Positions 1-63,827 of a stretch of DNA of 64,000 nucleotides are shown here, piece after piece. Origin of the DNA: a plasmid; sequence record NZ_CP069398.1; one strand, written 5' to 3'. Numbering within the stretch: position 1 is the stretch's first letter; every line of letters starts with the position of its first letter. A model generated the notes under the pieces. That model saw only the letters and a list, made by a program, of their open reading frames with translations, was not told the DNA's origin and did no database searches. The position numbers and the translations under genes were made by a program.

Positions 1-352
1 AGACAATTGCAGTGCAAGAAGATTGTAAGACTTCATTGCTCTTAAAAAGTAATAAAGACCAGTTACTAAATACATTTTCTATATAGAGAAGCATCCATGA
101 AACTGAAAACAAAAACTGAATCAAATACTTATATGTAGGTGTGTATTTGACATTAACGAATGACAACACAATGTTGTTAAAAAGTTCTTGCTTGTTTCGT
201 TCAATACGTTCTTTGTCTGTCTCCTTGTCTTTTTTTTGCTTAGAAGAAATTACAATGCTCATAAATAACTCTCCCTTCACGTGTTATTATATATAGAATA
301 ACATTGCCAAAAAAACATTTGTATACTTTTTCCAATAACCTTAAAGGTTTAT

Positions 353-622
353 TTGAACAGGCTTAAGCCTGTTTGTATATTTAATGGGGGTGTTGAAATA
401 AAGATTATCTTTATTGGTTTCATATGTAGTCTTTGCTTAGCATTAGCATGGGAAAGCTTTCGTAAAATGGTTTTCACCGTACATCAATTAGAATCGATAG
501 ACCTGCATACAGATAAAAAACTAGCGCGAATTTTAAAGAGAAAAATCAACATGTACCGTTTTTTTTATTCATTTATAGGTGTAATTGTAATTTTGATTTT
601 ATTTTCTGCATTCGGTCCCTAA
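353..622 (+). CDS. hypothetical small membrane protein
   Basis: 89-aa ORF with two hydrophobic segments; no recognisable motif. Confidence 0.25.
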   Translation: MNRLKPVCIFNGGVEIKIIFIGFICSLCLALAWESFRKMVFTVHQLESIDLHTDKKLARILKRKINMYRFFYSFIGVIVILILFSAFGP

Positions 623-745
623 AGAGACTTTTTAAATTGCATCGAATGAAGAGTTATACGTAAAATAAAAGTTAATTTCGTCAGAGAGCGTTTCTCAGTC
701 AAAAAAAGAAGTACCAAATTAGTTGGTCACTTCTTTTTCTACATA

Positions 746-3187
746 TTATGAATTTATGTTTTGTTTAATCTTATTCAATATATCTTTTTGAGTATTCGTT
801 ATTTTTGGTGTTTCATCTTCTACTGTTTTCTCCAAAGTTGCTACAACTTGTTGTTTTTCAGTTGCCGCAGCGACTTGTTGATTTTGAAAATGTACAATAG
901 CTTCATTAACAATTTCTCGATTTTTCTTTTGTTGCTCCATTTTCTTTTCTTCTTCTGCCTTTATACGCTGCTGCTCTTTTTCCTCTTCCAATTCCTTTTT
1001 ACGTTGTTCCATACTAGCTATTTGCAGTTCTTCGTACTGCTTCACTTTTTCATCAAACAAGGCTTTTGCGTCTGCGTCTGTAGATAGTTCATAGTCCTGC
1101 AAATCTATTTTATATTTCTCTGTTAACGCTACTTTGTTTTCATCTAGAAAGTACTTATATTGATAAGCTTTATTTAGTCGTATAGGGTTAGTATTATCTG
1201 TAACTAATAAAGCTTCATCTTTTGGTAATGATTTTACTTCTGTTGGGTCTAATAAAGGACGTTTCACTACGCTTGTAGACTCACTGCTTGAACTTCCAGT
1301 ATTGGACGTATTTTTGGATTTAGATACGGCTTCTACTGTCGTAGAACCTAGCAGGTTACTAAATAATTCTTGTGTTGCTTTATCTGATGCTTTTAATAAA
1401 AGCTTAGCAGAACAATTGGCCAGAAAACTATCCGTTTCCTTCGGATAAGTTTTTTCAATTTGAGTGATATTTTGTAGGATTGGAACTACCGATATACCGT
1501 AGCCTCGACACGTACTTAAAAATGTAGTGAAATCTGGTAGTTTAGAAATGTTTGCAAATTCATCTAAAATAAATTGTACAGGTACATATAACTCTTTCTT
1601 TTGCGTTTCCCTTGCCACCATTTTTAACTCTCGGAATAGCTGCCTAATGAATAAACTTACTAACGATGCAAATGATTTATCATCCTCATCAATAATTAGA
1701 TATAGAGCTACCTTTTTACGTCCTATATTTCCTAATAAAAAATCACTGCTGCTTGTTAATCTGCGTACTGCGTTTGATGCAAAATCTGATACAGTTGTAA
1801 GTAATGAAATGATAATCCCTGCACGTGTTTTACCAATCGATTTTTTATAACCTAATTCATATTGTTCTCGGGCAGGGTGATTAAAGCTGAGTCGCCCAAA
1901 CATGGCATCTAAAGCCGACTGTTCTTCCTCTTTGTTGAAAGTATCTTCAAACTCACGCAAGAAGTTCAAAATCCCCCCTAGATTACGGTCTTGAGGTTCA
2001 AATTCATATACTGCATAGAGAATTAAGGCTTTTAATAATGCTAATTGAGCGTTAATCCACACATTGGACTGGGACATATCATTTTTACTTGAAACTATGG
2101 CATGGGCTACAGTTGATGCATCAGTTTCTTTTCTAACATAGTCCAGAGGATTCCAACAGTTAGATGACCACATATCTAGAAAATTCATCACAATGACTTG
2201 ATAACCTTGCTTTTCTTTAATACGCGCCGTATTAACAAATACCTCACCTTTTGGATCTGTTACAACTACACTTGATTGAGTTTGGAACATAACATTCCCC
2301 ATTACAAAACCTTGAGTTTTCTTTCCACCTGAGCCCCCAACAACTATTACATTACGATTACCTAATTCTGAATCAAATGTTTGAATGACAGGTGAAGAAT
2401 CTTTTATGCCAAATATAGTTCCTGATTGGGGATATAGCTCTTTAAATTTCTTTTTTTGCAGTTCTGTATAGTAATCCATACTAAAAGGAATATAAGAAAC
2501 CATTTCTTCTTCTGATAAATCTTGAAGGTTATATGAATACGATTCGTTCCCCTTATTGACTGTTAGCATTTTTTTCTCAGAAAGCTGCAACTCATATTTT
2601 AGAAATTCATCCCGTCTTTCTGGTTTTATTCTTTCGGCTGCATCTTCTATTTTCTTTACACGAGACATTTCAAACCGTTTTAACCTTGATAAGTTGTCTT
2701 TAATTGAAGTAACAATTTCTTGGTCAACCTCGGCTTCACCGTTCAATATCTTTTTGTACTCTTCGTCAACTTCCTTTTGAATATTAAAACTTGCTTCAAT
2801 ATCAGCAACCAGTTGTTTACTTGGCATTTTTTTAGCGAAGTAACTTAAGTCAAATGCTTCTTTGATTGTTGCCCATCTTGATGTACCATGCACACCCACA
2901 TGATGGGCGGCTTTATACCCTTTTTGACTGCTTCCAGATGCACGAAGCATTACAAAAATGATTCCTAGTAGTAACAGAGGTTGAGCGATTTTAAAGGGAA
3001 CTTGCTCCCATGCGGATGGGAGCAAGTCAATAGGCGATTGAGCAAAGTTTAAAGCTACATTAATTACTTCTTGAGGTTGTTTAATAACGACGGGGACAGT
3101 AGCGAATACAACAGCTAAAACATAGTCTACTATAAGTGCTAAAACGAATAGAAAAGTAAATATTCCGGCTTTAGGCAAAACAATCAC
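746..3187 (-). CDS. type IV secretion coupling protein (VirD4/TraG/TcpA-like ATPase)
   Basis: Two N-terminal TM helices; Walker A VVGGSGGKKTQG; T4CP signature VTDPKGE; Walker B-like IIDEDD; long acidic coiled-coil C-terminal tail. Confidence 0.8.
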   Translation of the reverse strand: MIVLPKAGIFTFLFVLALIVDYVLAVVFATVPVVIKQPQEVINVALNFAQSPIDLLPSAWEQVPFKIAQPLLLLGIIFVMLRASGSSQKGYKAAHHVGVHGTSRWATIKEAFDLSYFAKKMPSKQLVADIEASFNIQKEVDEEYKKILNGEAEVDQEIVTSIKDNLSRLKRFEMSRVKKIEDAAERIKPERRDEFLKYELQLSEKKMLTVNKGNESYSYNLQDLSEEEMVSYIPFSMDYYTELQKKKFKELYPQSGTIFGIKDSSPVIQTFDSELGNRNVIVVGGSGGKKTQGFVMGNVMFQTQSSVVVTDPKGEVFVNTARIKEKQGYQVIVMNFLDMWSSNCWNPLDYVRKETDASTVAHAIVSSKNDMSQSNVWINAQLALLKALILYAVYEFEPQDRNLGGILNFLREFEDTFNKEEEQSALDAMFGRLSFNHPAREQYELGYKKSIGKTRAGIIISLLTTVSDFASNAVRRLTSSSDFLLGNIGRKKVALYLIIDEDDKSFASLVSLFIRQLFRELKMVARETQKKELYVPVQFILDEFANISKLPDFTTFLSTCRGYGISVVPILQNITQIEKTYPKETDSFLANCSAKLLLKASDKATQELFSNLLGSTTVEAVSKSKNTSNTGSSSSESTSVVKRPLLDPTEVKSLPKDEALLVTDNTNPIRLNKAYQYKYFLDENKVALTEKYKIDLQDYELSTDADAKALFDEKVKQYEELQIASMEQRKKELEEEKEQQRIKAEEEKKMEQQKKNREIVNEAIVHFQNQQVAAATEKQQVVATLEKTVEDETPKITNTQKDILNKIKQNINS

Positions 3188-3196
3188 GCTCCTTAA

Positions 3197-4513
3197 TTAT
3201 GCTTTGTTAATGTTTTCAATCTCTTTTTGAATAGACTCAATTTCTTTTTTCTTTTGGTCATCATCTTTTTCCTTATCGGATTTAATGAGATCGATTTGTT
3301 TGTTTTTCGCTTGAATCATAAGACTTTTATCGTTCAAACCTTTAGCAAGGTCAAATGCCTCTTTTGCTTTATTTGTATTAATATAAGAACTAGCAAGCAT
3401 CCCCTTTTGTCTATCGTCAGGTTTAATTTTATCTTTCAATTCAATTACTTTATTAAAATCTCTATTAATATAAGCCTGCTCAAACTGCACTAATGGCGAG
3501 TCTGATTTCCAATTCTTCAATCCTTCATCATTATGAGCAACTAAGTATTTAACAACGTCTTCTTCAGAAGACATTTTAGCTGCTTCAGCATAATTTCCAA
3601 TACCTATATAACCCTGCTGTAATAATGACTTTTCTTCGGCATTTAGCTGCTTCTTAGTACTTAACAACTTAACTAATTCATCATTTTGTCCCTTATATTG
3701 TAATCGATAAGCCTGTAATATTTCATTTGACTGTTTTAAATCGTTTTGATTAGTTGTTGCGGCTACTGTTGAAGCTTCTGAAGGGGCATAGATTGATTTC
3801 CCTAAAGCAAATGATCCTCCAGATAAACCAATCGCTAAAACAATTGCACCGCCAATCGTTAAGAGCTTATTTGGTTGTGGCATAGCTGTTTTTCTTTTAG
3901 AATCTAATTCTTTCATATAAGTTTCTTGCAGACGTTCTCTTTCCCGCACAATCGCTATTTCAATATCATCAAAGTTCCGAGCATCTGCAATATGTTTCAA
4001 GAAATCAGATAAATCTTCATAAACGCTATAAATTCCTTGCTTTCTTAATGAATCGAATGAGTGTTTTGTAAATAGATAAACAATAAGGCATTGAATATAA
4101 TAGAAGTCATTCTGGTCAATTGGATTTGTCAGCCCTTTTAAACCTCTATACAGCGCTTTTACCTCTTGCAGCTGCTTAAAATATAGGTTTTCAGGATATA
4201 GGAAAGTAGTATATTCACTCTCCCCCAGAAATCTAAAGGTTAGGAGATTTTCAGCGATAGCAAGCTTTTGCAATGGTGCTTGTTTTCTTGCTCTTGGGAG
4301 AGGAACAAAGCCTTCTTCAATTTCGTAATTTAGTATTGTATATTGCTTATCATAATGAATTTCAGTACAATCGAAGAATAGATGAGATGGGCTTTTGAGT
4401 GGCTTCAATTCGCTAACCGCATCTATTTTCGTTAAGCTGGTCGAAATGCGATATTCGCATTTCCGACCTTCTACTTTTAAAGTTCCTTCTAGAAACATAT
4501 TTGACTTAGCCAT
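3197..4513 (-). CDS. conjugation-cluster protein of unknown function with central TM segment
   Basis: 438-aa ORF in operon with T4CP; hydrophobic segment LLTIGGAIVLAIGLSGGSFALG; no catalytic motif recognised. Confidence 0.4.
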   Translation of the reverse strand: MAKSNMFLEGTLKVEGRKCEYRISTSLTKIDAVSELKPLKSPSHLFFDCTEIHYDKQYTILNYEIEEGFVPLPRARKQAPLQKLAIAENLLTFRFLGESEYTTFLYPENLYFKQLQEVKALYRGLKGLTNPIDQNDFYYIQCLIVYLFTKHSFDSLRKQGIYSVYEDLSDFLKHIADARNFDDIEIAIVRERERLQETYMKELDSKRKTAMPQPNKLLTIGGAIVLAIGLSGGSFALGKSIYAPSEASTVAATTNQNDLKQSNEILQAYRLQYKGQNDELVKLLSTKKQLNAEEKSLLQQGYIGIGNYAEAAKMSSEEDVVKYLVAHNDEGLKNWKSDSPLVQFEQAYINRDFNKVIELKDKIKPDDRQKGMLASSYINTNKAKEAFDLAKGLNDKSLMIQAKNKQIDLIKSDKEKDDDQKKKEIESIQKEIENINKA

Positions 4514-19422: not shown

Positions 19423-19552
19423 TTGGTTCCGTGAAGAGTGTTTATGTAAACTAGGATTGTATATGATATACAACCCTAGTTTTATGAAAAATAAGGTGTT
19501 TAATATTCAGTTAAATGGTAAAATTGTTTTATTTTAGAAAAGAGGAAATGAT

Positions 19553-20340: not shown

Positions 20341-20464
20341 ACCTATAATGTGGATTATGGTAACTAAAGATGTATGAAATATACAACGTTATTAAGCGCT
20401 CCTAAACATGCTTTATGGTATTATCTCTTGTATGTAATGGTTTATATATCCAGTAAAGAAAGGA

Positions 20465-20794
20465 ATGAACTTAATGAATCAGACAGAACTGAAAGGACAC
20501 CTTTATAAACTTGAAGAGAAATTATTACAACCAAGTGTTCGAAAATCTATTGAAGAGTTAGATAATCTTTTAGCAGATGAATTTATGGAATATGGAAGTT
20601 CAGGGCAGATTTTTTATAAAGAAATAACAATGAACAGGCTTCCTTATGAGACAACTGTTAAAATGACAATGATGGATTTTGAAATGAAATTATTAGCCTC
20701 TAACGTGGCTTTAACAACGTTTAAATTACTCAAACATAATAATATGCAATACTCTTTACGTAGTTCAATATGGAAATTGAAAGAAGAGAAATAG
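20465..20794 (+). CDS. hypothetical protein (DUF4440/NTF2-like candidate)
   Basis: 109-aa ORF; weak resemblance only. Confidence 0.3.
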   Translation: MNLMNQTELKGHLYKLEEKLLQPSVRKSIEELDNLLADEFMEYGSSGQIFYKEITMNRLPYETTVKMTMMDFEMKLLASNVALTTFKLLKHNNMQYSLRSSIWKLKEEK

Positions 20795-21465
20795 CAAATG
20801 ATATTTCATCAAGGAACTCCTACAACATTATCATAGAAAGACACTGCCGATAATTGGTATTATGGTGCGACAAGAAGTCGCTTTCTTACAGTGTAGCTAA
20901 CGCTACTCATCTAGACGCGAAGATGATCTCCATCCGAAACGGCATTCTTGGTAACGAGTCTGTCGGTTGCATGAGGAAATGTGGAAACAGAGGACAAATG
21001 CATGGTCCAGAATACTGCTAGGAGAAGATAGGTATGGTAAACAAAAGTGAAGGTTTGTAAGCTTCGTAAGGGTTAGCTCAAGATAATGCACAGCTTTGCT
21101 TGGGTCTTGGCAAGAGGAAAAGTAGAATCATAATGCTGCTCTGATGCGTCCCGCATCTTGCCCGGAGTAAAGAACCTACCTACCCCTATCGCATCTGTAG
21201 GAAGTGGAACTTGGTAAGCCCTATGTCATCTGCATAAGCAGTAGGATGACTGTAAAGTCAAACGATGTGGCAGAGGGTATGGGATATGAGAAAAAGCGAA
21301 AGCCGTTACCCTGAAAAGGGACAGGAAAGCAGAAACACTGTATAACTGGACGGATACTGTCGTCTCTATTGACAATGACAGGCTCGAAAGAGCGCCCACT
21401 TCTCATTGGTCTTCAACACGAAAATAAATTTGTGGCTATCTTCTAACGAAAAGGAGCGTGCTGTT

Positions 21466-22048
21466 ATGAATACCTCTCTACGAGCGTCGGCGCACGTCTC
21501 GCATAAAGATTGGTACTCTATTGATTGGAGTATTATACAAAAATATGTAGCGAAGTTACGACAAAGAATTTATCGTGCCGAACAGCAAAATCAACAAAGA
21601 AAAGTAAGGAAACTTCAACGTTTACTCCTACGGAGTAAAGCAAATCTGCTGCTTTCCATTCGCAGAGTAACACAACAAAACAACGGTAAGCGAACACCTG
21701 GTGTAGATGGCTATACGGCTTTAAAACCAAGCGAACGTATCAAACTTTATAAACAGATAGTTAAATGTAATGTCTTCCGACATCGTCCAAAGCCAGCAAA
21801 ACGAACGTTTATCCCGAAGAAAAATGGAAAAATGAGACCTCTCGGTATCCCCACGATACGAGATCGAGTGTATCAAAACATAGTAAAAAACGCACTCGAA
21901 CCACAATGGGAGGTCAAGTTTGAACCAACTTCTTACGGTTTTCGTCCTAAACGAAGCACACACGATGCTATAAGTAATCTTTTTAATAAGCTTAACACGA
22001 ATAGTAAGAAAAAGTGGGTATTTGAGGGAGATTTTTTAGGATGCTTTG
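21466..22048 (+). CDS. group II intron reverse transcriptase/maturase, 5' segment (interrupted by nested intron)
   Basis: MNTSLRAS...GCF identical in register to copy 2 IEP up to the interruption point; RBS AAGGAG. Confidence 0.8.
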
Positions 22049-22749
22049 GTGCGTGACGTTAATCTGAAATTTCAATAGAAATATTGATTGGGATGATTTA
22101 GTAATAAACTGCAATTCTGATAGAGGGAATGAAAGCCGTCATGTTGAGCTGAAACCTCTACACTGATACTCCCATGTGCAGAAAGAAAGGCTAATTTTGG
22201 ACTGTTTAGTAGCTGGGTAAAGTCGATGAAATCTAATGGAATTCAACATTAGGTCAGAGTAATCGGGTGGTGATAGTACATGGTGAGAATGTTCTTTTAG
22301 AACCGACGAACTTCCGAATGTACAGGTCCTTAACCTAGGGATTTCCTGAGATGGATTTCTTGCCTCACACTGAGGTAGTTGGTGGAGTGAAGTAAAAATC
22401 GAAGCTATGAAACACTCTGTGTTTAACAATGAAAACAATGTGCCAACGGGCTTATAGGAAGCACCTAACTACTATCTATACTAGGAACTGTGGAACGTCA
22501 GAAACTAGAAACTGAGGTCTTCTTCGGAAGGAAAACGATTAGCCTCGAACAGGTGTATTGAAAACCTCACGGTATAAGATACTTTATTCTAGTGAAAGTG
22601 GTGCCATAGTACCAATGAAACTGCTAATCATAGTTGAGGGAGGGGCACTAGTCAATCCTATTTTATTAGTAACTCATACAATAGTTGAACTTCTATCTTC
22701 GAGTATGACAGGGAAAGCATCTCCTAGGAGGTGTCCCAATAGAAGGCTT

Positions 22750-24195
22750 ATGAACAAATACAGGTATTCAGATTACTACAATATGACGCCCATATTTGAT
22801 GAACTCTATCAGAAATCGAGTGAAAACAAGAAATTCAAAAAACTGATGGATGTAATCCAATCGGATAACAACATTAAGCTCGCTTTCAGAATGATAAAAT
22901 CAAATACTGGTTCAAAAACAGCTGGAACTGATGGACTAACCATCCAAAATATTAAAGAAAATAATATTGATGAATACGTCCAGCAAGTACGTAATAAGCT
23001 TAACAACTTCAGTCCAGATGAAGTCAGAAGGGTTCATATCCCTAAGGAAAATAGCAAAGAAAAAAGACCGTTAGGTATTCCCACGATGATAGACAGACTG
23101 ATTCAACAATCGATTAAACAAGTTCTAGAGCCTATATGTGAAGCGAAATTCCATCCACATAGTTATGGGTTCAGACCTAACAGAAGTACAAATCATGCTC
23201 TGGTAAGAATGAGTTCATTGGTTAATGTAGGTCATTTTTATCATGTTGTGGACATCGATATTAAGGGGTTCTTTGATAACGTAAGCCATAACAAATTGAT
23301 TAAACAAATGTACTCGCTAGGTATCCATGATAGAAAACTTCTATCGGTTATTAAATCAATGTTGAAAGCCCCAATCGCTGGAGAAGGTATTCCAACCAAG
23401 GGAACACCGCAAGGTGGAATCCTTAGTCCCCTTCTCTCTAACATAGTTCTTAACGAACTAGATTGGTGGATTAGCTCACAGTGGGAAACGTTCAAAACCA
23501 AATCTAACTATTCAAATGACTCAAACAGATATAGAGCTATCAACAAAACAAAATTGAAAAAGATTTTCATCATTAGATATGCAGACGACTTTAAGATTAT
23601 GTGCAAAACTCATAAACAGGCTCAGAACATATATCATGCAGTCAAAGATTGGTTGAAACAAAGACTTGGTTTAGATATAAGCCCTGACAAATCCAAAGTC
23701 ATTAACTTAAAAAGAAATCCTTCGGATTTTCTCGGATTTGAAATTAGAGCAGTTAAAAAGAGTGGAAAATATGTTGCGTACTCTCATGTTAAGTCGAAAG
23801 CTAAGGTTAGAATCAGGAAACAATTAACAGAACAAGTTAAGAAAATCCAGAAGAAACCTTCGCCTGAAAACATTAAGCGATTAAACGCAATCATATTAGG
23901 ACTCCATGTTTACTATAAGTCCGCAACTCACGTCTGGAAAGACTTTGGAGAAATTGCTTACCCTGTATATAGGATGATGTTCAACCGTCTGAAAAAGTTA
24001 TCTAAATATGAAAAGGTTAAGAAAAAGAACACTATTTTTGGGAAATTCTATGGAAAATGCGATGCAAAAACATGGACGATTAGTGGAATTTCCATATTCC
24101 CTATTCACTATGTGCATTCGCAGAACATCATGTGCATTCGCAAGACACATGTGATTATACAAACAAAGGTAGACAGAAATCTACCAAGGCACTGA
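22750..24195 (+). CDS. inner-intron reverse transcriptase/maturase (RT + X domains); start uncertain (22750 or 22783)
   Basis: RT motifs AGTDG, PLGIPTMIDRLIQQ, YGFRPNRS, IIRYADDF; truncated by frameshift before the En domain. Confidence 0.75.
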   Translation: MNKYRYSDYYNMTPIFDELYQKSSENKKFKKLMDVIQSDNNIKLAFRMIKSNTGSKTAGTDGLTIQNIKENNIDEYVQQVRNKLNNFSPDEVRRVHIPKENSKEKRPLGIPTMIDRLIQQSIKQVLEPICEAKFHPHSYGFRPNRSTNHALVRMSSLVNVGHFYHVVDIDIKGFFDNVSHNKLIKQMYSLGIHDRKLLSVIKSMLKAPIAGEGIPTKGTPQGGILSPLLSNIVLNELDWWISSQWETFKTKSNYSNDSNRYRAINKTKLKKIFIIRYADDFKIMCKTHKQAQNIYHAVKDWLKQRLGLDISPDKSKVINLKRNPSDFLGFEIRAVKKSGKYVAYSHVKSKAKVRIRKQLTEQVKKIQKKPSPENIKRLNAIILGLHVYYKSATHVWKDFGEIAYPVYRMMFNRLKKLSKYEKVKKKNTIFGKFYGKCDAKTWTISGISIFPIHYVHSQNIMCIRKTHVIIQTKVDRNLPRH

Positions 24196-24578
24196 AAAAT
24201 CAAACCGATATTAAAGTCATAGAACTTGCGAAAAACTACGTCAAAGAACGAAGCATACAATACAACGATAATCGTATAGCTCGTGCGTCGATGTGCAGTT
24301 TTAAATGTGAACTAACTGGAATGGAACTTGAAGTTAAAGATGTGCACGCACATCACAAAATACCTATTAAATTAGGTGGAACGGATGAATACGATAATTT
24401 AATAATTGTTCATAAAGATATCCATAGACTTATTCATGCAACATCTGAAACAGTAATAAACAAGCACATTAACCTTATTCATAACAAGCAAAAGCTTAAA
24501 AAGCTGAATACTTTAAGGGCATATTGTAAACTAGAAGCCATTTCAATGGCTTCAGAGGATAATAATAAAATAGCTTGA
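24132..24578 (+). pseudogene. frameshifted HNH endonuclease (En) domain of the inner-intron maturase
   Basis: HNH motif HAHHKIPIKLGGTDEYDNL...HKDIH; separated from the RT ORF by a 20-nt tandem duplication at ~24109-24148. Confidence 0.65.
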
Positions 24579-24680
24579 TGGAACGCCGTATGCAGGGAAA
24601 CTTGCACGTACGGTGTGAGGTGGGGGAAAAGTAAGTATCGTCACAGGTAATGCTGTCGAGAACACTTACCTATCACGCAT

Positions 24681-25747
24681 ACCATCTTAATCATGATTGG
24701 ATAGTAGAACAAACATCTATGTTTCCAGGAAACACTCTCATCAAAAGATGGCTTAAAATGGGTTACATAGAGCAGGATATGCTTCGTACGACAACAGAAG
24801 GAACCCCTCAAGGGGGTATTGTGTCTCCCCTTCTAGCTAATATCGCCTTATGCGGTATGGAAGAAGAAATTGGTATTGTTTATAAAAAGACATACAAACC
24901 AAACGGAGGATACGCAATCGATCCAAAATGTAAGATAGGACGTGTTCTCTATGCCGATGACTTTGTCATCGTAACGGAAACGAAGGAAAAGGCTGAAAGC
25001 ATGTATGAGAAACTAACTCCTTACTTACAAAAGCGAGGAATTACACTTAGTAAAGAGAAAACTAGAGTTACACATATTGAGAACGGGTTTGATTTTCTCG
25101 GTTTCTCGCTGCGTCAATACAAGACGGAACAAGGTAATAAGCTACTAATCAAACCTAGCAGAGACAGCATTAAAAAAGCAAAAAATAAGATAAAAGATAC
25201 GTTCGCATTAATGAGAGGACGCCCAATAAAAGAACTAATACGTGTTTTAAATCCAATTATTCGTGGTTACGGACAGTATTGGAAACATGTCGTTTCTAAA
25301 AAGACGTTTGGATATATGGATAATTACTTATTCCTTAAAATAACAAAACACCTTAAACGACTACATCCAAAGAAGGCGTGGAAATGGATTATTAAACGTT
25401 ATTTTAAGAAGCCCAACCATGGAGGGAATGATAAATGGACTCTCACATGTCCACTTACTAACATTCAATTGTTAAAGATGTCTTGGATTAAAATAGAACG
25501 GCATGTCATGGTAGCCTATAAAAACAGCCCAGATGATCTGAGTCTAAGAGAGTATTGGGAAAAACGAGACCGTAAGGTCTTTAATAATGAAAATACATTG
25601 GATAGGATGAAACTCGCAAGAAAACAAGGATATCGTTGTGCATTGTGTAAGCAGACTTTACAAAATGGAGAGAAAGTTACAGTGCGAAACTTAGAGGTTT
25701 CTACAGGTGAATTTGCTAAATTAGTACATGTACCATGTATTAAATAA
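24681..25747 (+). CDS. group II intron reverse transcriptase/maturase, 3' segment of outer-intron IEP
   Basis: Collinear with copy 2 residues DHLNH...VHVPCIK; contains YADDF RT motif 5/6 and C-terminal Cys-rich (degenerate En) region. Confidence 0.8.
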
Positions 25748-25993
25748 ACAAGTTGTTCGGATAAAAAGAAGGCTTGAGCCGTATGACGGGAAATCTGTCA
25801 CGTACGGTTCTTAGGGGGGCGGGCGCTCGTGAGAGTGCCTGCCTACCCGACTTAACTAAGGATGGATGAAGTATACATGTAGTTATGCTCATCTTTTAGG
25901 GTCTGCTACTAAGTTTCATGGAAAATAAAGTATGTACTTTGCTTTCTGATAAGTTTAAAATTATTTAGAAGATTCTTTTAAGAGGTGTAACTT

Positions 25994-26407
25994 ATGAGTA
26001 TAGAAGAAGAATTGTATAATTCAGCAATTGATTTTGTTCAAAAGCGTTACCCCAAAGGATGGGGAGGAGCAGCAGCCATGAGGCTAGAAGACGGACAAGT
26101 ATTAATTAGTGTTGCTCCTGAAGTAATTAATGCTTCAACAGAGTTATGTATGGAAACAGGTGCTATCTGTGAAGCCCATAAGCTTGGTTTAAAGGTTACT
26201 CATAGTATTTGCGTTGCCAGAGATGATGAGAATTCAAATTTTAAAGTATTAACTCCTTGTGGGGTATGCCAAGAGCGTTTGTTTTATTGGGGATCAGAGG
26301 TTAAAGCAGGTATCTATTCTGCTGAAAACAATCTATTATTCAAAACTTTAAAAGAAATTCAACCATATCACTGGTATGAAGCTTACCAAGAAGAAGCTCA
26401 TCAATAA
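25994..26407 (+). CDS. cytidine-deaminase-fold zinc deaminase (blasticidin-S/cytidine deaminase-like)
   Basis: Zn-ligand/catalytic motifs CME (cf. CAE) and PCGVCQE (cf. PCxxCRQ); 137 aa typical of tetrameric CDA/BSD. Confidence 0.55.
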   Translation: MSIEEELYNSAIDFVQKRYPKGWGGAAAMRLEDGQVLISVAPEVINASTELCMETGAICEAHKLGLKVTHSICVARDDENSNFKVLTPCGVCQERLFYWGSEVKAGIYSAENNLLFKTLKEIQPYHWYEAYQEEAHQ

Positions 26408-26561
26408 GTAAGAGAGAATACTATATTTTTAGTGTTCTCTCTTTTTGTTTCCGATAAATCTTGATTATGTTAACTAAATATGTATAAAGTATACATATTT
26501 AAAACTATAAAGGTTTTTTTTGAAATGAACAGAATTATATCATTGTAATTAGTACAAGGCG

Positions 26562-27164
26562 GTGATTAAAATGAACCTTTTTCAACAATTAGTCGATTCT
26601 ATACATAGAATTTCTAAAAAACAATCTACACTTTTATTAGGAATTGATGGCTGTGGGGGTTCTGGAAAAAGTACATTAGCTGAAAAGTTAAAAGAAGAGT
26701 TTGCTAATGTGACCATTGTTCATATGGATGATTTTTATCTTCCTTCTAACCAAATTATAAATACTCATCCAACCAAAAAGCCTATTGGTGCAGACTTTGA
26801 TTGGGAACGTTTATTAAATGATGTGCTAAAGCCAATTAGTCAAGAAATAGAAGGACGATATCAGCGATATGATTGGGAAAAGGATGATTTAGCAGAATGG
26901 CATGTAGTGCCTATCGGCGGAATTGTCATCATTGAAGGCGTATATTCAACTCGTAGAGAATTAAAAAATAAATATGATTTTACTGTTTGGGTTGATTGTT
27001 CGAGGGAAATAAGGCTAGCTAGGGGAATTCAAAGAGATGGAGATGCTTCTAGGGACATATGGGAAAATAATTGGATGATTTCTGAAGATATCTATGTAAA
27101 AGAACATGAACCCAATAAAAGATCAGACTTTATTATACCTGGAACTGGAAAGGATAGAGGATAA
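26562..27164 (+). CDS. P-loop nucleoside/nucleotide kinase-like protein (uridine kinase family-like)
   Basis: Walker A LLGIDGCGGSGKSTLAEKL at N-terminus; 200 aa. Confidence 0.5.
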   Translation: MIKMNLFQQLVDSIHRISKKQSTLLLGIDGCGGSGKSTLAEKLKEEFANVTIVHMDDFYLPSNQIINTHPTKKPIGADFDWERLLNDVLKPISQEIEGRYQRYDWEKDDLAEWHVVPIGGIVIIEGVYSTRRELKNKYDFTVWVDCSREIRLARGIQRDGDASRDIWENNWMISEDIYVKEHEPNKRSDFIIPGTGKDRG

Positions 27165-27318
27165 CTTGATAGTTATCCTCTTGTTTACTGTTTGAGTGCC
27201 GATAAGGCACATTATGTTGACTAGCATACATTATGTTTCAACTGTTAAATAAAAGATTAATTTCTATATATTGTGTTATAATTCTAAGCATGTATTAAAG
27301 TTATAGAGGAGTTTTCAA

Positions 27319-27913: not shown

Positions 27914-27935
27914 TGTTCCGGTAATTGGTTTTATG

Positions 27936-30290
27936 GTGCGACAAGAAGTCGCTTTCTTACAGTGTAGCTAACGCTACTCATCTAGACGCAGAGATGATCT
28001 CCATCCGAAACGGCATTCTTGGTAACGAGTCTGTCGGTTGCATAAGGAAATGTGGAAACAGAGGACAAATGCATGGTCCGGAATACTGCTAGGAGAAGAT
28101 AGGTATGGTAAACGAAAGTGAAGGTTTATAAGCTTCGTCACAGTTAGCTCAAGATAATGCATATTCTTGCTTGGGTCTTGGTAAGAGGAAAAGTAGAATC
28201 ATAAAGCTACTCTAATGCGTCCCGCATCTTGCCCGGAGTAAAGAACCTGCCTACCCCCGTCGAATCTGGAGGAAGTGGAACTTGGTAAGCCCTACGTCAT
28301 CTGCATAAGCAGTAGGATGACTGCAAAGTCAAACAATGTGACAGAGGGTATGGGATATGAGAAAAAGCAAAAGCCGTTACCCTGAAAAGGAACAGGAAGG
28401 CAGAATCACTGTATAACTGGACGGATACTGTCGGCTCTACAGACAATGACAGGCTCGAAAGAGCGCCTACTTCTCATAGGTCTTCAACACGAAAATAAAT
28501 TTGTGGCTATCTTCTAACGAAAAGGAGCGTGCTGTTATGAATACCTCTCTACGAGCGTCGGCGCACGTCTCGCATAAAGATTGGTACTCTATTGATTGGA
28601 GTATTATACAAAGGTATGTAGCGAAGTTACGACAAAGAATTTATCGTGCCGAACAACAAAATCAACAAAGAAGAGTAAGGAAACTTCAACGTTTACTCCT
28701 TCGGAGTAAAGCAAATCTACTGCTTTCTATTCGCAGAGTAACACAACAAAATAACGGTAAGCGAACACCTGGTGTAGATGGCTATACGGCCTCAAAACCA
28801 AATGAACGTATCAAACTTTATCAACAACTAGTTCAATGCAATGTCTTTCGACATCGTCCAAAACCAGCAAAAAGAACATTTATTCCGAAGAAAAACGGAA
28901 AGCTACGACCTTTGGGCATTCCTACGATACGAGATCGAGTCTATCAAAACGTAGTAAAAAACGCACTCGAACCCCAATGGGAGTTTAAGTTTGAGCCCAC
29001 ATCCTATGGTTTTCGTCCTAAACGAAGTACACACGATGCTATAAGTAATCTTTTTAATAAGCTTAACACCAATAGTAAGAAAAAGTGGGTGTTTGAGGGA
29101 GATTTCTCAGGATGTTTCGATCATCTTAACCATAATTGGATAATGGAACAAACATCTATGTTTCCGGGGAGCACTCTCATTAAAAGGTGGCTTAATATGG
29201 GATACATAGAGCAGGATATGCTTCATATGACAATAGAAGGAACCCCCCAAGGGGGGATTGTGTCTCCCCTTCTAGCTAATATCGCCTTATGTGGTATGGA
29301 AGAAGAGATTGGTATTGTTTATAAAAAGACTTACAAACCAAACGGAGGATACGCAATTGATCCAAAATGTAAGATAGGGCGTGTTCTATACGCAGATGAT
29401 TTCGTCATCGTAACGGAAACGAAGGAAAAAGCTGAAAGTATGTATGGGAAACTCACCCCTTACTTACGAAAACGAGGAATTACACTTAGCATGGATAAAA
29501 CTAAAGTTACACATATCGAGGGCGGGTTTGATTTTCTTGGCTTCTCGCTGCGTCAATACAATACGGGACAAGGAAAGAAGTTATTTATCAAACCTAGCAG
29601 AGACAGCATTAAAAAGGCTAAAAACAAGATAAAAGATACGTTCTCTGTGATGAGAGGACGACCAGTAAAAGAACTAATACGTGTTTTAAACCCGATTATT
29701 CGTGGCTACGGCCAGTATTGGAAACATGTCGTATCCAAAAAGACTTACAGCTATATGGACAATTATATTTTCCTAAAAGTGAGAAAACACCTTAAACAAT
29801 TGCATCCAAAGAAGTCGAGAAAATGGATTAGCAATCGTTATTTTAAGAAGCCCCACCACGGTGGAAATAATAAATGGATTCTCACGTGTCCACTTACTAA
29901 CATTCAACTGTTAAAGATGTCCTGGATTAAGATAGAACGGCATGTCATGGTAGCCTATAAAAACAGCCCAGATGATCCGAGTCTAAGAGAGTATTGGGAA
30001 AAACGAGACCGTAAGGTCTTTAATAGTGAAAATACATTGGATAGGATGAAACTCGCAAGAAAACAAGGATATCGTTGTGCATTGTGTAAGCAGACTCTAC
30101 AAAATGGAGAGACAGTTACAGTGCGAAAACTAAAGGTTTCTAGAGGTGAATTTGCTAAATTAGTACATGTACCATGTATTAAATAAATAAGTTGTTCGGA
30201 TAAAAAGAAGGCTTGAGCCGTATGACAGGAAATCTGTCACGTACGGTTCTTAGGGGGGCGGGCGCTCGTGAGAGTACCTGCCTACCCGAC
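27936..30290 (+). mobile_element. group II intron copy 2 (intact, uninterrupted)
   Basis: 5' GTGCG at 27936; domain V GAGCCGTATGACAGGAAATCTGTCACGTACGGTTC; ends ...CCCGAC at 30290; contains intact 549-aa IEP. Confidence 0.85.
28537..30186 (+). CDS. group II intron reverse transcriptase/maturase (intact)
   Basis: RT motifs PGVDG, PLGIPTIRDRVYQ, YGFRPKRS, YADDFVIV; X domain; C-terminal Cys-rich region; the ORF track gives 28501 (TTG-type upstream start), ATG with RBS at 28537. Confidence 0.85.
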   Translation: MNTSLRASAHVSHKDWYSIDWSIIQRYVAKLRQRIYRAEQQNQQRRVRKLQRLLLRSKANLLLSIRRVTQQNNGKRTPGVDGYTASKPNERIKLYQQLVQCNVFRHRPKPAKRTFIPKKNGKLRPLGIPTIRDRVYQNVVKNALEPQWEFKFEPTSYGFRPKRSTHDAISNLFNKLNTNSKKKWVFEGDFSGCFDHLNHNWIMEQTSMFPGSTLIKRWLNMGYIEQDMLHMTIEGTPQGGIVSPLLANIALCGMEEEIGIVYKKTYKPNGGYAIDPKCKIGRVLYADDFVIVTETKEKAESMYGKLTPYLRKRGITLSMDKTKVTHIEGGFDFLGFSLRQYNTGQGKKLFIKPSRDSIKKAKNKIKDTFSVMRGRPVKELIRVLNPIIRGYGQYWKHVVSKKTYSYMDNYIFLKVRKHLKQLHPKKSRKWISNRYFKKPHHGGNNKWILTCPLTNIQLLKMSWIKIERHVMVAYKNSPDDPSLREYWEKRDRKVFNSENTLDRMKLARKQGYRCALCKQTLQNGETVTVRKLKVSRGEFAKLVHVPCIK

Positions 30291-30380
30291 TAAACTGGAA
30301 TTGAATATCATATTAACAATGTTTTCCATCCTTATATTTGATAAAATGGAACAAATAAGGTGGTTATATTTAGGGGGATG

Positions 30381-33280: not shown

Positions 33281-33382
33281 AATTTCTTCTTCTTTCTATT
33301 GTTCCTGATAATACATTTTATATTAACTGACAGATAAATAAACGGTATAATTAACCATATATTTAGTTCTTGGAGGACCAAA

Positions 33383-36352: not shown

Positions 36353-36456
36353 TTTGCTAATAGCAGCTTAAAGGGTCTCCCATTTTGAAGACCCTTTTTT
36401 AGTATCTATAATATTGATTATGTTAACTAAAGATGTTTAACGTATACACCATCAGA

Positions 36457-36828: not shown

Positions 36829-36999
36829 ATTCCTCCTAAAATTAAGATGTTAGATAAGTCCTTCACCTTAATTTTATATATAATGTATATGTAAGAAAAT
36901 AACAGAAAACTTAAGGGGAATATAAGTTTATCTTATGCTTTCTGAGAAGGTTCATTATGTGAACTAACAAAAGGTTACTGTTAAAATAGGGGGCATTTA

Positions 37000-37485: not shown

Positions 37486-37630
37486 TTAGTGCCGATAATG
37501 TCTGTTATATTAACTAGAAAGTGACCCTTAGAATTATGTAGAATCTGACCCTACTATAGGTATTAGAAGTGCTTTAAGCTATATCTATATATATTAAAAA
37601 ATCGATTGTCGATGATTAGGGGGATAATAC

Positions 37631-63339: not shown

Positions 63340-63462
63340 ACTTTATTTCTACTTTACATAATCACCATTATCGGCACTCTTATTATGATTTTGATAAAAT
63401 TCGATCCACCTACAATGTTATAAAAAGATTCTTACAAAGATAGAAAAAATATGGATAAGTAG

Positions 63463-63708: not shown

Positions 63709-63827
63709 AAATACACTCTAGTTAACATAATGTCTCTTAAAGGAACCAAACAAGCAGAAGAACCCTTGGGGAAGTATACTTAATTAGAAAAATGTAGTCT
63801 TTATAAAAAAATATTTTATTATTTATT

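Follow-up and report, generated by a model that had tools for sequence, protein, structure and literature searches.

Bacterial twintrons, with one group II intron lying inside another, are rare but established (PMC4424553; PMC4649490), and about 4% of database introns that were missed by one pipeline were twintrons or multi-intron loci (PMC4028801). The introns M.a.I5, UA.I3, P.l.I2, and B.th.I3 home into the YADD codons of the intron-encoded proteins (IEPs) of other introns (PMC2504315), and the identical inner and diverged outer introns of Thermosynechococcus elongatus were taken by Mohr et al. to indicate recent, independent insertions (PMC2882425). The Thermosynechococcus and Methanosarcina twintrons thus make the kind a known one, to which a locus on a Priestia megaterium plasmid adds a member. 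The stretch analyzed (64,000 nucleotides [nt] of sequence record NZ_CP069398.1; referred to as the window) contains a twintron at positions 20865 to 25851. The reading favored here, to which a probability of roughly 85% is given, is one of three stacked site-specific elements: a dif-like site, a CL1B-like group II intron inserted in it, and a class B-like group II intron that would have retrohomed into the CL1B-like intron. A literature search found no twintron report for megaterium.

The outer, CL1B-like intron (positions 20865 to 25851, plus strand) has the ends GTGCGAC and CCCGAC. An uninterrupted copy (copy 2) is located at positions 27936 to 30290, also on the plus strand, with its IEP encoded at positions 28537 to 30186. 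Both copies start with GTGCGACAAGAAGTCG and finish with CCTACCCGAC, and both contain a domain V/VI match above the gathering score of RF00029 (positions 25774 to 25851 and 30213 to 30290; 65.7 bits each), in agreement with a preliminary description of the window in which the two were said to share ends, domain V, and IEP. The domain V/VI fold of the outer intron had a z score of −6.8. The first copy is longer than copy 2 by 2,632 nt. Its 5′ part (20865 to 22048, plus strand) comprises the GTGCGAC end, domains I to III, the start of domain IV, and IEP codons 1 to 194 plus the first base of codon 195 (start ATG at 21466), and its 3′ part (24681 to 25851, plus strand) runs from the AC of codon 195 to the stop codon (25745 to 25747) and then through domains V/VI (25774 to 25851). 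With positions 22049 to 24680 removed, the outer intron is 2,355 nt long, the same length as copy 2, and aligns to it with 0 gaps and 2,162 of 2,355 identities (91.8%). Removal joins the G at 22048 to the AC at 24681-2 and re-creates the GAC (Asp) codon in FEGDFLGCF^D HLNH (the caret here and below marks an insertion point), which restores an open reading frame (ORF) of 549 amino acids that contains no stop codon, is colinear with that of copy 2, and is identical to it at 499 of 549 residues (87 codons differing synonymously and 50 nonsynonymously). The restored IEP contains the Pfam domains RVT_N, RVT_1, and GIIM, and the restored outer ORF was intact in 8 of 9 twintrons compared. The locus is therefore a twintron, with one intron wholly inside another and exact removal restoring the outer one; this nesting anatomy is far beyond chance, and the preliminary description was right in every coordinate, including the interruption of 2,632 bp after FEGDFLGCF.

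The borders of the outer intron were confirmed by a Logan contig (L044; L handles denote individual loci) that carries an intronless allele, in which window position 20864 is joined straight to 25852 among the same genes as in the window (creatininase, DUF4440, 137-amino-acid protein, and kinase genes); four further loci (L042, L043, L045, and L047) also confirmed the 3′ border. At the same codon, neither copy 2 nor any of eight outer-intron copies on plasmids (L049 to L056), one of them on pBM400 of strain QM B1551, contained the inner insert. With its conserved ends, domain V/VI, an exact empty site, and an IEP that contains reverse transcriptase (RT) and maturase domains, the outer element is a group II intron. 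The closest solved relative of its IEP was the TeI4h IEP (6me0; CL type; E = 5e-97). All outer IEP copies end with RCALCK...HVPCIK/Q, in which the HNH residues of the Bacillus anthracis intron B.a.I1 are absent and the endonuclease (En) domain is absent or degenerate, and a 549-amino-acid, endonuclease-less IEP is the norm for this intron family and not decay. A candidate exon-binding site 1 (EBS1), CATAA at positions 21233 to 21237, is complementary to the TTATG of the 5′ exon. Two EBS2 candidates, TATCG (21187 to 21191) in the window copy and CAGTTA in copy 2, were not conserved between copies and faced a variable target (−6 to −11), and no EBS2 was assigned. No Rfam D1-D4 family matched the outer intron, even at an E value of ≤0.1.

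The inner, class B-like intron (22049 to 24680, plus strand; 2,632 nt) extends from GTGCG to CGCAT, starting with GTGCGTGACG and finishing with CACGCAT, and is inserted in the outer IEP's conserved GCFD motif, where it separates the G of the Asp codon from the AC. A domain I segment (22104 to 22277, plus strand) matched RF02004 (group-II-D1D4-5) at 71.9 bits, compared to a gathering score of 34.5, and the segment comprising domains V/VI and the 3′ end (24581 to 24680, plus strand) matched RF00029 over positions 24581 to 24678 at 56.3 bits, compared to a cutoff of 40. Domain V folds into a 14-bp helix that is capped by a GAAA loop and contains a 2-nt bulge, and the branch-point A was placed solely from the Rfam alignment. 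An RVT_1 domain (E = 2e-42) is encoded by the insert, with an HNH domain (E = 9e-7) in a different frame, so that the ends, domain V, RT, and HNH domain attributed to it in the preliminary description were all recovered. On the basis of these domain I and domain V/VI matches, the 5′ GUGYG and 3′ AY ends, the IEP domains, and a 6-bp pairing of EBS1 with intron-binding site 1 (IBS1), the inner element is a group II intron.

The intact form of the inner IEP, represented by more than 20 near-identical Priestia proteins, is 609 amino acids in length. Classification of the two IEPs was run against two B. anthracis pXO1 proteins only; over its full length, the inner IEP was 43% identical to the IEP of pXO1-23, which we take to be B.a.I2, and 26% identical to that of pXO1-07 (B.a.I1), and the outer IEP was 52.5% identical to the latter. 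Because the inner and outer IEPs share only 32% identity, the nested introns represent unrelated lineages. Toro and Martinez-Abarca placed B.a.I1 in CL1B and B.a.I2 in class B and named one B. megaterium intron per class, B.me.I2 (CL1B) and B.me.I1 (class B), in a figure legend only (PMC3552965); these names may correspond to the introns described here.

Target recognition by the inner intron was examined by predicting an EBS1 hexamer from two IBS1 variants (GCTTTG and GTTTCG) before searching for it in the intron. The predicted hexamer, CGAAGC, was found in domain I at positions 22400 to 22405 (plus strand), in a loop of the centroid fold; its one other copy in the inner intron, at 24249, lies within the ORF. 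This EBS1 is unchanged in an 88%-identical relative (L041) and forms 6 bp with all four IBS1 variants at invaded sites (GCUUUG, GUUUCG, GUUUUG, and GCUUCG), including two that were found later (GTTTTG in L041 and GCTTCG in L059), of which GCTTCG pairs fully by Watson-Crick pairing. The two G residues of EBS1 oppose the last base of the Cys codon (TGY) and of the Phe codon (TTY), and all synonymous forms of the motif are therefore targets. A tentative EBS2 (GUCCU; 22326 to 22330, plus strand), which pairs with AGGAU at positions −11 to −7 of the 5′ exon, is invariant in the window, L001, and L041.

The inner IEP of the window is frameshifted, as had been noted in the preliminary description. 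The intact copies read ATGTGCTTTTCGCAAG where the window reads ATGTGCATTCGCAAG, with the loss of one T and a T-to-A change at positions 24135/24136. The 1-nt deletion is private to the window allele, and the same allele was present in an independent short-read assembly (L057; SRR12978823) at 100% identity. The truncated frame (22753 to 24195, plus strand) encodes 480 amino acids from MNKYRY and ends 20 codons past the frameshift, which lies at about codon 461 of 609, downstream of the RT domain (RVT_1 at residues 96 to 331) and of the X/thumb motif (aligned up to residue 392). The out-of-frame remainder (24136 to 24578, plus strand), which contains the DNA-binding region and HNH domain, is colinear with residues ~462 to 609 of the intact protein, and Pfam HNH was matched in ORF 24132 to 24578 (E = 9.4e-7). 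Programmed frameshifting was considered for this IEP and is ruled out by more than 20 close homologues with uninterrupted 609-amino-acid ORFs. The frameshift turns ATGTGCTTTTCGCA into ATGTGCATTCGCA, an exact copy of a 13-mer located 20 nt upstream (24112 to 24124; region 24112 to 24144), and this suggests slippage or template switching between near-repeats rather than random deletion. In LtrA-type IEPs, maturase activity requires RT and X and not En, and target-primed reverse transcription requires En. By this analogy, the truncated inner protein is plausibly still a maturase that has chiefly lost target DNA cleavage and hence mobility, and, with RT and X kept and En out of frame, the inner copy of the window is likely to be competent for splicing yet immobile.

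The outer intron was proposed in the preliminary description to need its own maturase, which could be made only once the inner intron had been spliced. One half of this proposal stands, in that the outer IEP can be translated only from RNA that is free of the inner intron. Dependence on that protein is only one possibility. The insertion lies in the ORF loop of outer domain IV and leaves outer domains I to III, V, and VI untouched; because these domains are intact and copy 2 encodes a 91%-identical IEP 2 kb downstream, the outer intron need not await inner splicing for a maturase, and the outer ribozyme could be served in trans by the IEP of copy 2.

An alternative is that the twintron of the window is a dead relic in which neither intron splices and neither IEP is made and which persists in nonessential intergenic DNA. 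The intergenic position, the frameshifted inner IEP, and a nonsense mutation in the adjoining DUF4440 gene relative to L044 are consistent with such decay, as is the observation by Zimmerly and Semper that bacterial twintrons lie outside housekeeping genes (PMC4424553). The state of the sequence itself argues against it: both ribozymes retain canonical domains V/VI and intron ends, the outer ORF, once restored, is intact, RT and X are left unharmed by the frameshift, a closely related IEP is available from copy 2, and the inner intron differs from intact copies at only 18 of 2,633 positions (99.3% identity to the P. megaterium NCT-2 plasmid copies). We therefore regard a dead relic as unlikely, although it is the strongest of the alternatives.

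In every context with enough flanking DNA, the inner intron occupied the same codon of a CL1B-type IEP. Eight of these contexts are other Priestia loci, comprising the two NCT-2 plasmids (L001 and L002), a 5.07-Mb chromosome contig, and other contigs (together, L034, L035, L036, L038, L058, and L059), with different flanking genes in each of the eight. In Priestia aryabhattai (L039; GCA_036223095.1, positions 1 to 3990), the same inner intron occupies the same codon of a host IEP that has an intact HNH domain and is only ~50% identical to that of the window, and in an assembly labeled "Bacillus cereus" (L041; GCA_016757935.1), the 88%-identical inner relative lies at GCF^D of another CL1B host (72% identical in local DNA). 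Inner copies were 99.3 to 100% identical, compared to 86 to 100% for the outer halves, and twintron hosts were often nearest to uninvaded introns (the 5′ half of the window intron to L054, at 96.6%, and that of L036 to L052, at 99.2%). Because the hosts diverge from one another by as much as 14% and are interspersed with uninvaded copies, the inner intron appears to home repeatedly and independently into the RT motif of diverged hosts. When one genome per species was searched for relatives of the inner intron, the IEPs at the 30 loci found were all ≤67% identical, and none lay in a CL1B-like RT gene; as far as sampled, specificity for the RT motif is therefore confined to the Priestia/88% lineage. 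The representative genome of P. megaterium yielded no relative of the inner intron, and the plasmid collection yielded no match of ≥95% outside the two NCT-2 plasmids.

Several observations weigh against the reading favored here. The twintron hosts show mosaicism: the introns of the window, L002, and L036 are 98.6 to 99.6% identical in their 3′ halves (window to L002, 99.6%; window to L036, 98.8%), whereas their 5′ halves are ~92% identical; L001 and L002 have the 5′ half (99.8%) and the inner intron (100%) in common and not the 3′ half; and L034 and L035 contain twintrons that have 100% identity from end to end, share the left flank, and differ in the right flank. The best explanation of this mosaicism is homologous recombination through the near-identical copies of the 2.6-kb inner intron, which implies that recombination between intron copies rearranges flanking DNA, and part of the spread could have come from recombination or movement of whole twintrons and not from new homing events. 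In copy 2, at a distance of 2 kb, the IBS1 and IBS2 sequences match those of invaded sites, yet its inner-intron target (GGATGTTTCG^ATCATC, between positions 29119 and 29120) is empty; this fits endonuclease loss, but it fits equally the G^AT 3′ exon of copy 2, as all invaded Priestia sites are G^AC. The EBS2 candidate of the inner intron is weak, since it is not in a loop of the local fold and forms 4 of 5 pairs with the L041 exon, and no EBS3 was located for this intron by a complementarity scan and local folding. Finally, the class assignment of both introns is provisional and based on protein similarity to two reference IEPs.

Taken further, the same pattern could mean that the twintron is propagated chiefly as a composite, with the outer intron reverse splicing into new dif-like sites while the unspliced inner intron is aboard, after one original nesting event. 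Mohr et al. name composite mobility as a possible route (PMC2882425), twintrons occupy nine different dif-like sites, and the identities shared within the L001/L002 and L034/L035 pairs would be expected of it. Such spread does not account for twintron hosts that form no clade and whose halves, nearest to uninvaded introns, are 8 to 14% apart while the inner copies are ≤0.7% apart, nor for the presence of the same inner intron in the ~50%-identical host protein of L039; in addition, the interrupted outer IEP cannot be made from composite RNA. As the principal route, it is considered improbable, distinctly more so than a dead relic, and repeated homing of the inner intron remains the preferred interpretation.

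That the nesting is an assembly artifact joining two repeated elements has a negligible probability: both introns are multicopy and short-read contigs of ~2.6 to 2.9 kb break at the borders (L037, L040, L046, and L057), but the L057 contig spans both junctions (80 nt of outer intron, the whole inner intron, and 167 nt of outer intron) at 100% identity, the junctions are also spanned in complete plasmids and the 5.07-Mb chromosome contig of other strains, and excision is codon exact. Priestia short-read assemblies broke exactly at the borders of the inner and outer introns (the same four loci, and several proteins on contigs of 2.6 to 3.1 kb), and because of such breaks, twintrons will be systematically underreported in draft genomes.

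The outer intron is inserted in a 28-nt dif-like site (20843 to 20864 plus 25852 to 25857, plus strand), of which the left 22 nt, ACTGCCGATAA TTGGTA TTATG, form the 5′ exon and the right part is TTAACT. This site is intact and unoccupied in L044 and matches Bacillus subtilis dif (ACTTCCTAGAATATATATTATGTAAACT) at 21 of 28 positions. Copy 2 likewise interrupts a dif-like site (27914 to 27935 and 30291 to 30296). Each of the 18 outer-intron insertions that were examined (9 in twintrons and 9 without the inner intron: window positions 20865 and 27936, L001, L002, L034 to L036, L038, L049 to L056, L058, and L059) was at TTATG^NNAACT of a dif-like site. The consensus of the 18 sites, TtCCgatAA-N6-TTATGtTAACT, has the 11-6-11 dif layout (11-nt arm, 6-nt spacer, and 11-nt arm, with inner arm ends ..ATAA and TTATG..), and individual sites match B. 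subtilis dif at 17 to 22 of 28 positions. Reference dif sequences, including the Escherichia coli and Frankia sites that these sites resemble, are those of Kono et al., the supplements of which do not include a B. megaterium dif (PMC3025954).

Ten further dif-like sites (CCGrwAA-N6-TTATGTTAACT) were found in the window, compared to 0.87 expected from shuffled sequences, eight on the plus strand (19429 to 19452, 20342 to 20365, 26452 to 26475, 27199 to 27222, 33305 to 33328, 36405 to 36428, 36942 to 36965, and 37492 to 37515) and two on the minus strand (63351 to 63374 and 63720 to 63743). Nearly all are thus on the plus strand; they separate single genes or small groups of genes and are typically found a short way downstream of a terminator. 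Density was 2.5 sites per 10 kb in Priestia loci versus 0.07 in loci of other taxa. Between the window and four unrelated contexts (L042, L043, L045, and L047), homology begins exactly at 25852 and ends at 27223, with both ends inside dif-like motifs, and homology to L044 is likewise bounded at 25852 and 27223. These boundaries suggest Xer-bounded gene modules in Priestia accessory DNA, for example at 25852 to 27223, and from the site sequences and module boundaries, we infer that the dif-like sites may be substrates of CodV/RipX (XerC/XerD). No tyrosine recombinase family was found among 10 large window ORFs scanned, a scan that was not exhaustive. B.a.I1 on pXO1 (L003) was checked and is not in a dif-like site. 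The literature search yielded no description of Xer sites as targets of a group II intron, of Xer-bounded modules in Priestia, or of pdif modules in Bacillus.

A broader interpretation, offered tentatively and with slightly less than an even chance of being right, is that these layers make up a previously undescribed, three-level, site-specific parasitism, with dif-like module arrays on Priestia plasmids and chromosomes at its base, an endonuclease-less CL1B intron specialized on a fixed position in the XerD-arm half of the site, and a class B intron specialized on the RT-motif codons of the CL1B intron, whose synonymous drift it would follow by means of wobble-tolerant G residues in EBS1. Each module would consist of one to a few genes, a terminator, and a directly repeated site, and the outer intron, by splitting the site, presumably inactivates it.

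The order of events would have begun with the 28-nt dif-like site downstream of the DUF4440 gene on the conjugative P. megaterium plasmid. A CL1B-like intron encoding a 549-amino-acid IEP with no functional HNH domain would have entered this site at TTATG^TTAACT, and the endonuclease-encoding class B-like intron would then have retrohomed into the GCF^D-coding DNA of the outer IEP. The inner intron would be a specialist parasite of CL1B introns that independently invaded many already diverged copies, after which homologous recombination through near-identical inner copies may have reshuffled the outer halves. The inner intron of the window would subsequently have lost one base, leaving an IEP that stops after RT and X and lacks the DNA-binding/endonuclease part. 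This copy can probably still undergo splicing, either through its own truncated protein or else not at all, and would no longer home by target-primed reverse transcription; translation of the outer IEP would await RNA from which the inner intron had been removed.

The window includes a conjugative plasmid backbone (746 to 18486) that encodes a type IV secretion system coupling protein, a YukC-like protein, TrbL, a lysozyme/NlpC-P60 hydrolase, a TraG P-loop ATPase, a DnaB_2 replication protein, and a MobA/MobL relaxase. A VirB4-like ATPase was recognized in the conjugative backbone. The array of dif-like sites starts ~1 kb downstream of the relaxase gene. The twintron is intergenic, within a dif-like site downstream of the DUF4440 gene, and because it lies between genes, its splicing is not required by any host gene. 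Immediately upstream, the DUF4440 gene (20465 to 20797; 109 amino acids) ends at a nonsense codon (K-E-E-K-stop), and the intronless allele in L044 reads through to 120 amino acids (..KEEKWQMIFHQGTPTTLS). Elsewhere in the window, a thiamine pyrophosphate (TPP) riboswitch (RF00059, 79.8 bits) is present at positions 45559 to 45669 (plus strand), upstream of genes that include a thymidylate synthase-like ORF and an ABC transporter ATPase. A promoter scan returned fewer sigma-70-like sites than were found in shuffled sequence and was not used.

The Priestia introns provide a clean, multicopy example of twintron formation, with invaded alleles matched by uninvaded ones, a target in four synonymous variants, and one copy that is naturally endonuclease deficient. 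The system is suited to asking how EBS-IBS wobble tracks a protein-coding target and whether inner splicing gates the outer maturase. If the dif-like sites are functional, then Priestia accessory DNA is organized in Xer-bounded modules, so far described mainly for Acinetobacter, and a group II intron exploits Xer sites and could block them. Were they real Xer substrates, the outer intron would belong to the first group II intron lineage targeting Xer sites and could modulate module exchange.

Compared to known twintrons, what is new is the pairing of a class B-like intron with a CL1B-like host, the GCFD motif, an inner intron that carries an endonuclease, and wide recurrence within one genus. 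The TeI3-in-TeI4 twintrons of T. elongatus are similar in that the inner intron occupies a single conserved position within the outer intron's IEP region (domain IV), the inner copies are identical and the outer copies diverged, and the outer intron is of the CL lineage (PMC2882425). In those twintrons, however, the inner intron is ORF-less, belongs to the same family as the outer intron, and lies between two start codons, so that the outer IEP can still be made, whereas the Priestia inner intron is of an unrelated lineage, contains an endonuclease-encoding ORF, and splits the RT domain. M.a.I5 of Methanosarcina acetivorans, UA.I3, P.l.I2 of Photorhabdus, and B.th.I3 also target a conserved RT motif of another IEP, a self-renewing target from which twintrons result (PMC2504315; PMC4424553). 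Those introns are ~1.8 kb in length, have a B-like structure and no endonuclease, and target the YADD (block 5) codons; the Priestia inner intron is 2.6 kb in length, encodes HNH, is class B-like by its IEP, and targets the GCFD codons after the motif 3 aspartate. The twintron of Trichodesmium erythraeum is likewise a bacterial twintron of ~5 kb, and its sequential splicing represents the order expected here; it interrupts a conserved protein-coding gene and its sequential splicing has been demonstrated (Pfreundt and Hess, PMC4649490), whereas the Priestia twintron is intergenic, and its splicing order is a prediction.

The pXO1 introns B.a.I1 (CL1B) and B.a.I2 (class B) of B. anthracis were the only class reference IEPs compared, and the first 16 nt of B.a.I1 are those of the outer intron, but on pXO1 the two introns are separate, B.a.I1 lies outside a dif-like site, and its IEP keeps HNH. 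The more unusual element of the Priestia locus appears to be the dif-like target of the outer intron. Group IIC-attC introns insert in the attC sites of integrons. IS1202-group insertion sequences target XerCD sites in Acinetobacter plasmids (bioRxiv 10.1101/2022.12.17.520857). Like both of these, the outer intron occupies a fixed position in a repeated recombination site that bounds cassettes or modules; it differs from the IIC-attC introns in belonging to CL1B and not to IIC, in occupying a putative Xer/dif-like site instead of attC, and in its Priestia host.

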